Shown in pieces: positions 42,527 through 42,577 of a DNA stretch of 64,000 nucleotides. A program made the translations under genes and the position numbers. The stretch is from contig OZ024742.1 in the NCBI GenBank assembly GCA_964016885.1, positions 320,602,001 to 320,666,000 of the forward strand. The letters are read 5' to 3'. The notes beneath the pieces are model-generated. The model worked only from the letters and a program-made list of their open reading frames with translations. It made no database searches and was not told the origin of the DNA. Positions within the stretch are counted from its first letter, which is position 1, and the number at the start of each line of letters is the position of its first letter. Origin of the DNA: Eledone cirrhosa (lineage: Eukaryota).

Positions 42527-42577
42527 AGTTTCAGAAGATCCCGTTAAGGGTGAAAGCAGCTATTCTTTGCTTAAACT
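42527..42577 (+). ncRNA. Hammerhead variant with CAGAAGA core (H4), best-preserved copy, in solo pLTR 42527-42687
   Basis: agttt-CAGAAGA-t ccc gttaa ggg t-GAAA-gca gctattctt tgc-TT-aaact. Confidence 0.7.

Follow-up and report, generated by a model that had tools for sequence, protein, structure and literature searches.

A non-canonical adenine at core position 4 of the hammerhead-like motif in a Hydra-clade Penelope-like element of Eledone cirrhosa

The genome of Eledone cirrhosa carries a Penelope-like element (PLE) in which the hammerhead-like motif of the pLTR has an adenine at core position 4, the core reading CAGAAGA instead of CUGANGA. This substitution (U4A) is fixed across ~40,000 genomic copies and reflects neither chance nor local decay. 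A4 is also old, having been carried through all of the subfamilies found in the Eledone genome, and around it N7 and the loop interiors have varied freely whereas the catalytic letters and the ends of loop 2 have stayed constant, a pattern indicative of selection acting on the hammerhead fold. Our preferred reading, to which we give an even chance of being right, is that the motif is a slow, probably protein-assisted variant ribozyme with putative cleavage after CUU.

The element and its copies in the window

The DNA analyzed here is a stretch of 64,000 nucleotides (the window), in which positions 31468..34893 of the minus strand hold a decayed, near full-length copy of the element with a 5' UTR, a broken ORF, a 3' UTR, the hammerhead, a long tail, and a (TA)n end. 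The ORF (32698..34826, minus strand) encompasses an RT, a CxCX5C linker, and a GIY-YIG at the C-terminus, and is interrupted in the window copy by stops and frameshifts; the same ORF is open over 689 to 726 amino acids in all 10 of the other copies compared, which were chosen for long frames, and the layout from motif to ORF is repeated in 14 plus 10 further genomic stretches. Within a 713-residue ORF, the C-terminal placement of GIY-YIG is given by YIGLT at residue 602, following YRDD at residue 350, and there are Hydra-type marks at residues 41 (RWR), 119 (DKT), 568 (CNCRNRADC), 666 (CDLC), and 694 (CKH); CX2-5CxxC is absent from it. A Pfam scan of the ORF returned no family match, and the nearest database proteins (39 to 56% identity) have uninformative names. 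On the basis of these motifs and a by-eye likeness to the published Hydra alignment, we assign the element to the Hydra clade of PLEs, with its pLTR hammerhead-like motif near the 3' end. The initial annotation had called the element Naiad-1, a name we have dropped because the Naiad endonuclease precedes the RT, whereas that of the Eledone element follows it; the element also has DKT rather than DKA, together with the Hydra motifs. That annotation was right in placing a hammerhead-derived fold within the pLTR. A canonical hammerhead near the 3' end is a Hydra trait, and the Eledone motif is in the right place for it but has the A4 core. The 3' ends of the copies enter (TA)n at two sites, 15 and ~100 nt beyond the motif, both of which are also found in contigs.

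PLE introns are usually described upstream of the ORF. The Eledone element has a GT-AG intron of 750 nt within its ~1-kb 3' UTR, with the donor GTAAGT at 32610..32615 (minus strand) in the window and the whole intron at positions 2834-3583 of locus L098; its acceptor lies ~100 nt upstream of the hammerhead-like motif. The intron is exactly removed in five of the 51 copies compared, and a search for the donor-acceptor join gave 362 matches genome-wide, 93 of the 100 listed being the expected join, with 10 matches for the control. We estimate that there are ~330 precisely spliced retro-copies, the majority of copies retaining the intron, and this precise loss indicates that the family was transcribed and spliced.

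The copy at 42527..42577 (plus strand), from which the initial annotation took its description, is a 5'-truncated type I hammerhead-like motif with a CAGAAGA core and a predicted cut after 42572. The described layout of stems I, II, and III, GAAA, and CUU is all present in the sequence, in the order agttt, CAGAAGA, U, ccc/ggg with the loop GUUAA, U, GAAA, gca/tgc, CUU, and aaact; lower stem I is formed by 42527-31 and 42573-77, the core is at 42532-38 with A4 at 42533, and there are a U.U mismatch, a stem II of 3 bp, and a stem III of 4 bp with a 9-nt loop. This is not the best copy, as had been supposed, since truncation at AGTTT has removed its 5' arm of upper stem I, a second segment of 8 to 9 bp that is present in the copies at 9037 and 35195 and in mutated form in that at 31641. 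The remainder of this short insertion (42578..42687, plus strand) contains the 3' arm of upper stem I (42578-86, its partner lost), AATAAA, the short-form end, and a tail of ~85 nt that runs to a (TA)n repeat, where the long form ends.

Other copies in the window are more complete or differently rearranged. The 3' motif of the long element (31582..31657, minus strand) has a CAGAAGA core, and its upper stem I and stem II bear private changes. Upstream of that element is a pLTR piece (34893..35029, minus strand) that is cut inside loop 3 and joined to an inverted, 5'-truncated copy (35030..35268, plus strand), which has the intron acceptor AG at 35095-96 and a full motif at 35179-35254 (plus strand) with a CAGAAGA core and four private changes, including G12A. 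An older copy (9015..9105, plus strand) has a complete stem I, a longer U-rich bulge, and a private G5A change (CAAAAGA). At 21385..21592 two copies form an inverted, back-to-back pair in which both lack the 5' arm of stem I and the junction is centered on position 4 (21438); the plus arm reads CAGAAGA, and the minus arm (21441) reads CTGAAGA because the inversion junction is centered on a TTC-A-GAA palindrome. Inversions of this kind, centered on position 4, regenerate CTGAAGA on one arm. The cores previously reported, CAGAAGA at 21434, 35195, and 42527 (plus strand) and at 31591-31641 (minus strand) and CAAAAGA at 9037 (plus strand), are thus as described. A fragment at 52110..52138 (minus strand) starts exactly at the predicted cleavage site, a single case that is within background and has no genome-wide excess behind it. 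No hammerhead family was among the three Rfam matches (E≤10) for an intact copy, or among the 150 listed of 295 Rfam matches across the window.

In complete copies the motif is 76 nt long, with stem I extended by 8 to 9 bp behind a U-rich bulge of 7 to 8 nt. Full pairing of three helices around the core, with stem I open, can be drawn, which matches the type I layout. Six of the seven positions of the CUGANGA core fit, with N7 variable and A at position 4, and GAAA, the A15.1-U16.1 pair, and CUU are present in young and ancient copies alike. Loop 2 occurs as GCUUA, GCUUUA, GUAUA, GUAAUA, and GUUAA, its first G and last A constant, and all subfamilies conform to RNnA (purine first, A last), a form seen in 22 of 27 natural hammerheads (PMC2632901). 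The predicted energy of the hammerhead fold is -9.8 kcal/mol versus -15.1 kcal/mol for the minimum, with pairing probabilities predicted at <0.1 for lower stem I and ~0.33 for stem III, and folding z-scores range from -1.3 to +0.7. The stems are invariant and no compensatory pair was seen in them, and no second hammerhead core was found on the sense strand of the one long copy scanned.

Position 4 across the genome and through older copies

When the 3.0-Gb genome was searched with an exact 24-mer in which position 4 was left variable, A stood there in 19,868 matches, T in 81, and either C or G in 133, such that A4 accounts for 98.9% of 20,082 exact matches; reversed-pattern controls gave 0 matches. 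By-eye counting of 100 listed matches with neither A nor T gave 41 C and 59 G, and the T count, being comparable to those of C and G, is at the background mutation level. With any letter allowed at position 4 and up to two mismatches, there are 40,279 motif matches genome-wide, and four of the 100 listed have T; two of these four are in inversion pairs, and some CTGAAGA copies arise mechanically, because palindrome-centered junctions give their two arms different letters, one A and one T. These counts bear out the proposal that U4A was present in the element that spread, and the consensus of the genomic copies at position 4 is A, not the CTGA that local decay would have left. A hidden canonical subfamily was considered and is ruled out, since T occurs at about the levels of C and G and the T copies are spread across subfamilies; a loose CTGANGA pattern has 170 matches genome-wide. 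The contigs of run X1, with 18,743 placed, contain no alternative letter at ≥5% at position 4, and runs X5 and X6 gave one and three low-depth contigs, respectively, which are near-identical to the Eledone family and so provide no independent cross-species evidence. Motif copies have also been multiplied within larger tandem duplications, at C4:351.96-352.26 Mb, C2:61.196-61.198 Mb, and C1791 (~40-kb, 150-bp, and kb-scale spacing).

We sorted 152 copies into five young-to-old groups and compared their majority letters. None of the 55 stem and core sites changed, compared with 25 of 272 elsewhere (p=0.008), and the two changes within the motif are both in the bulge. The unchanged run is 112 nt long, however, and extends 50 nt past the motif, so that this series is ambiguous alone; promoter or priming signals may share the constraint.

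A loose search recovered older relatives that are 70 to 80% identical to the young copies and belong to the same lineage by their ORF remains. A pattern of the ancient type in which position 4 was left open matched 348 times, and the 100 listed comprise 89 A, 7 T, 2 C, and 2 G; five of the seven T4 matches are at inversion junctions, and one has an intact upstream region. Among copies with N7=U, 23 of 26 have A4 (by-eye count). Because this pattern fixes the other core letters, a second set was chosen by the 3' flank alone, using 70 of 195 ancient copies, of which 46 cut inside or before the core were left out and 24, which retain the lower arm of stem I, were kept. Of these 24 copies, 20 have A at position 4, two have G, two have a deletion there, and none has T; all other core positions have the canonical majority letter, with N7 being A in 19 and T in five. 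An apparent canonical ancestor, suggested by ancient matches that had been selected for T, is ruled out by the searches blind to position 4.

Majority changes were then scored in three ancient groups (12, 6, and 6 copies) against one young copy. Of the 13 free positions (N7, loop 3, and the interior of loop 2), six changed versus none of the 13 other core positions (Fisher p=0.007), and the 38 core, stem, and loop-2-end positions were all unchanged (p=1e-4); the loop-2 ends were set apart post hoc, after the RNnA literature, and counting them as free gives 6 of 15. Among 15 long ancient copies, in groups that are 4 to 10% diverged from their own majority, changes were found at 0 of 38 stem, 2 of 14 core, 9 of 24 loop and N7, and 12 of 49 flank positions, and the two core changes come from a two-of-four tie caused by an AGA deletion, which is not a subfamily majority. 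Three ancient copies share the AGA deletion, which might have marked an amplified dead-core branch, but its 93 genome-wide matches are scattered and lie for the most part in young copies, and the branch is ruled out. The suspicion that the stems might be no better conserved than their flanks is accordingly not supported, the core and stems having changed less than the loops and flanks.

The state of position 4 before these subfamilies can be judged from relatives. A scan of 806 kb that allowed one core mismatch found ~12 other hammerhead families, all CUGANGA, and the closest sister family found (~55% RT identity) has a U3-A8 core in which U4 is kept. Because U4 occurs in the published Hydra elements, the other local families, and the sister family, we infer that it is the ancestral letter and that a single change predates the oldest visible subfamily.

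Cleavage and alternative readings

It had been expected that pLTR transcripts would begin just before aaactttaatc; at the DNA level, copies do not end there in excess. Non-matching letters immediately before the predicted cut site number 582, versus 511 and 547 at the two neighboring bases, and among 30 loci examined for each, 13 (cut site), 14, and 9 were true junctions, giving estimates of ~252, 238, and 164. In this assembly there is thus no genome-wide excess of 5' junctions at the predicted cut site. Of 79 long-form copies (from 91 places chosen by downstream sequence and filtered by position), one starts within 463-470 on the L098 scale and 27 start at 416-441, in the 5' half of the hammerhead, many of them as inversions on palindromes of the motif. 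The junction test nonetheless has little power, as the template is expected to be RNA that is uncut or re-ligated. The hammerhead of a PLE from Anolis likewise has no ends at its cut site among those reported although it cleaves in the presence of protein (PMC11167929), and the negative result therefore weighs little.

Our preferred reading, of a slow variant ribozyme, draws its support from the retention of A4 through older generations while the surrounding free letters changed. Transcripts from the upstream pLTR would fold the motif as a tertiary-stabilized hammerhead, in which the U-rich stem I bulge may dock on the G...A loop 2 and offset part of the loss of U4; a minor fraction of transcripts would then be cleaved slowly after CUU, likely helped by the element's own protein. 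Low activity could be sufficient or even favored, because reverse transcription starts downstream on uncut RNA and few transcripts need processing. There is precedent: although weak in vitro, a U4C variant of a viroid suffices for infection (PMC3088659), and the Anolis hammerhead is reported to cleave only in the presence of PLE protein (PMC11167929). Counting against strong cleavage are that the hammerhead is not the predicted minimum fold, that CUGA mutants have low activity elsewhere, and that cut-site junctions are not in excess. The stronger proposition, that this is a natural hammerhead reaching a biologically useful rate without the U-turn uridine, through either an extended stem I-loop 2 contact or a switch by its own protein, is tentative and we consider it unlikely. 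The sister family also counts against the preferred reading, in that a mismatched C3.A8 core (CTGAGAA) is shared by four of its loci; it seems to have amplified this core, so impaired cores can spread.

The most substantial alternative, plausible but in our view somewhat improbable, is that U4A abolished cleavage and that the motif is a catalytically dead pseudo-ribozyme, its fold serving the RT-endonuclease as a handle for binding or positioning; loss of self-cutting may even have aided the element's success. A full scan of mutations in a type III hammerhead is reported to have found low activity for every CUGA-region mutant, whether single or double, except a C3-G8 swap (PMC9901934), and Eledone insertions retain the uncut motif and end at the two downstream sites (15 and ~100 nt), as would suit a handle. 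The predicted misfolds and the lack of excess junctions at the cut site are also in keeping with it, as are reports from Anolis that hammerhead (HHR) mutants do not lower insertion in vitro, cleavage being dispensable, and that protein is needed for folding (PMC11167929), and the suggestion by Craig et al. (PMC8557442) that hammerhead loss may favor proliferation. Nonetheless, a handle would not obviously need the 13 other core letters, including the catalytic G8 and G12, with N7 left free, nor the constant ends of loop 2, whose known role is in speeding cleavage (PMC2632901).

Two further readings fare considerably worse. The mutation could be a neutral relic that hitch-hiked with a master copy, its conservation reflecting a short time or a DNA-level constraint on the 3' end, and the 112-nt invariant run extending beyond the motif in young copies and the lack of covariation in the stems are compatible with this; over the longer span, however, the 3' flank, the bulge, both loops, and N7 changed and the core and stems did not, in ancient copies as much as ~9 to 10% diverged from their own group majority. 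This pattern largely refutes the neutral reading, which we regard as quite improbable. Least probable of all is that A4 is kept since C3-A4-G5 provides a 3' splice acceptor, use of which would strip half of the core from the mRNA: the core does have an acceptor-like context (a branch-like TTGAC, a U-rich tract, and CAG), the element is itself spliced in its 3' UTR, and the intron of Drosophila virilis Penelope ends at helix I (PMC4209133), but of 362 matches, 93 of the 100 listed join the known donor to the acceptor ~100 nt upstream, joining of this donor to the core or to an AG 6 nt before the core has 0 genome-wide matches, and no donor-core join was present among 202 copies examined, making the core an unlikely acceptor for this donor.

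Nearly all PLEs carry a hammerhead; its activity in vitro is weak, and insertion can do without it in the only in vitro system. The U4A family offers a natural one-letter test, in which a change expected to be crippling has long been kept in a highly successful element with its other catalytic features intact. If the motif cleaves, it is a new and stable exception to the hammerhead core rule; without cleavage, the family would clearly exemplify a ribozyme fold selected for a non-catalytic job. Should a U4A hammerhead be usefully active, descriptor-based searches would miss whole families, and the ribozyme activity of PLEs would appear to be tuned down and protein-gated.

Relation to known systems and neighboring families

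The closest likeness is to the described Hydra PLEs (Hydra-1_aJap, Hydra-1_cRog, Penelope-3_HM, and Hydra-1_oBim), with which the element shares a single ORF of ~710 amino acids, a C-terminal GIY-YIG, RWK-type, DKT, CxCX5C, CxxC, and CxH motifs, (TA)n targets, inverted or tandem 5'-truncated copies with a tail, and a type I hammerhead near the 3' end (PMC8557442). Many of the published Hydra hammerheads also have a U10.1.U11.1 mismatch and U at the cut site; however, all 25 of the families in File S2 are CUGA by by-eye count, and the Eledone element is CAGA (PMC8557442 File S2). It differs further in its stem III, of 4 bp with a 9-nt non-palindromic loop (monomer-type) where theirs is a short palindrome, in the second stem I segment of 8 to 9 bp behind a U-rich bulge, and in the ~1-kb 3' UTR containing a spliced 750-nt intron. 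It is not Hydra-1_Obim, from which both the protein N-terminus and the hammerhead differ.

Natural core variants are known, including U4C in a viroid, U3-A8, A6C, U15.1-A16.1, and U10.1.U11.1 (PMC3088659, PMC4209133), and the Eledone motif resembles those described there in having one core departure in an otherwise complete fold and a U.U at the base of stem II. Unlike them, U4A puts a purine into the U-turn, and no other core change that might compensate for it is visible; the substitution is fixed in ~40,000 genomic copies and has been kept across several subfamilies. The Anolis element, Poseidon PAc, is similar in having a pLTR hammerhead, two reverse-transcription starts that define the tail, an uncut RNA template, and no reported cut-site ends, but belongs to another PLE clade and has an apparently canonical core, and its cleavage with protein has been demonstrated (PMC11167929). 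Naiads (Craig et al. 2021) are likewise Penelope-like, with (TA)n targets, high copy number, and no canonical hammerhead; their N-terminal endonuclease, CxC domain, and DKA are all lacking in the Eledone element. Penelope hammerheads and core variants are therefore already known, and what appears new is a fixed natural U4A, of which we found no report in the literature searched; the search covered publications, and Repbase or Dfam may record the family or the variant.

Several related families are present nearby. Copies of the sister Hydra family, for which there were 42,550 candidates at first look, are in the window at 35310-35433, 37029-37100, and 49723-49843 and in loci L265-L284; its hammerhead combines a U3-A8 core (TTGACAA) with a GUC site and a long stem II, and the CTGAGAA form with C3.A8 is perhaps an amplified intermediate toward U3-A8. 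A similar cluster of 5' junctions occurs in this family, in its stem II. A third Hydra-like family (~18760-18800, minus strand, downstream of an ORF piece at 19175-20856, and in locus L049) has a probable U3-A8 hammerhead (TTGAGAA, with a GCCC/GGGC stem II). Another, in locus L174 at 2310-2370, has a canonical CTGAAGA hammerhead of near-identical build, with the U.U, a short stem II, and U at the cut, and is a natural control. A Hydra-like element at 37193-39299 and in locus L145, with an ORF piece at 38563-38952 and inverted ends, showed no clear hammerhead at its 3' end.

At least five other repeat families in the window have canonical CUGANGA type I hammerheads, at 607, 4255, and 5531 on the minus strand and at 4306, 11563, 14599, 25481, 29097, and 51982 on the plus strand. 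We also note an unrelated retroelement ORF piece at 43248-44096 (minus strand), with a cysteine/histidine motif and a restriction-like endonuclease recognized by eye, and an open frame at 15352-15873 (minus strand) that by eye resembles a retrotransposon RT/RNase H.
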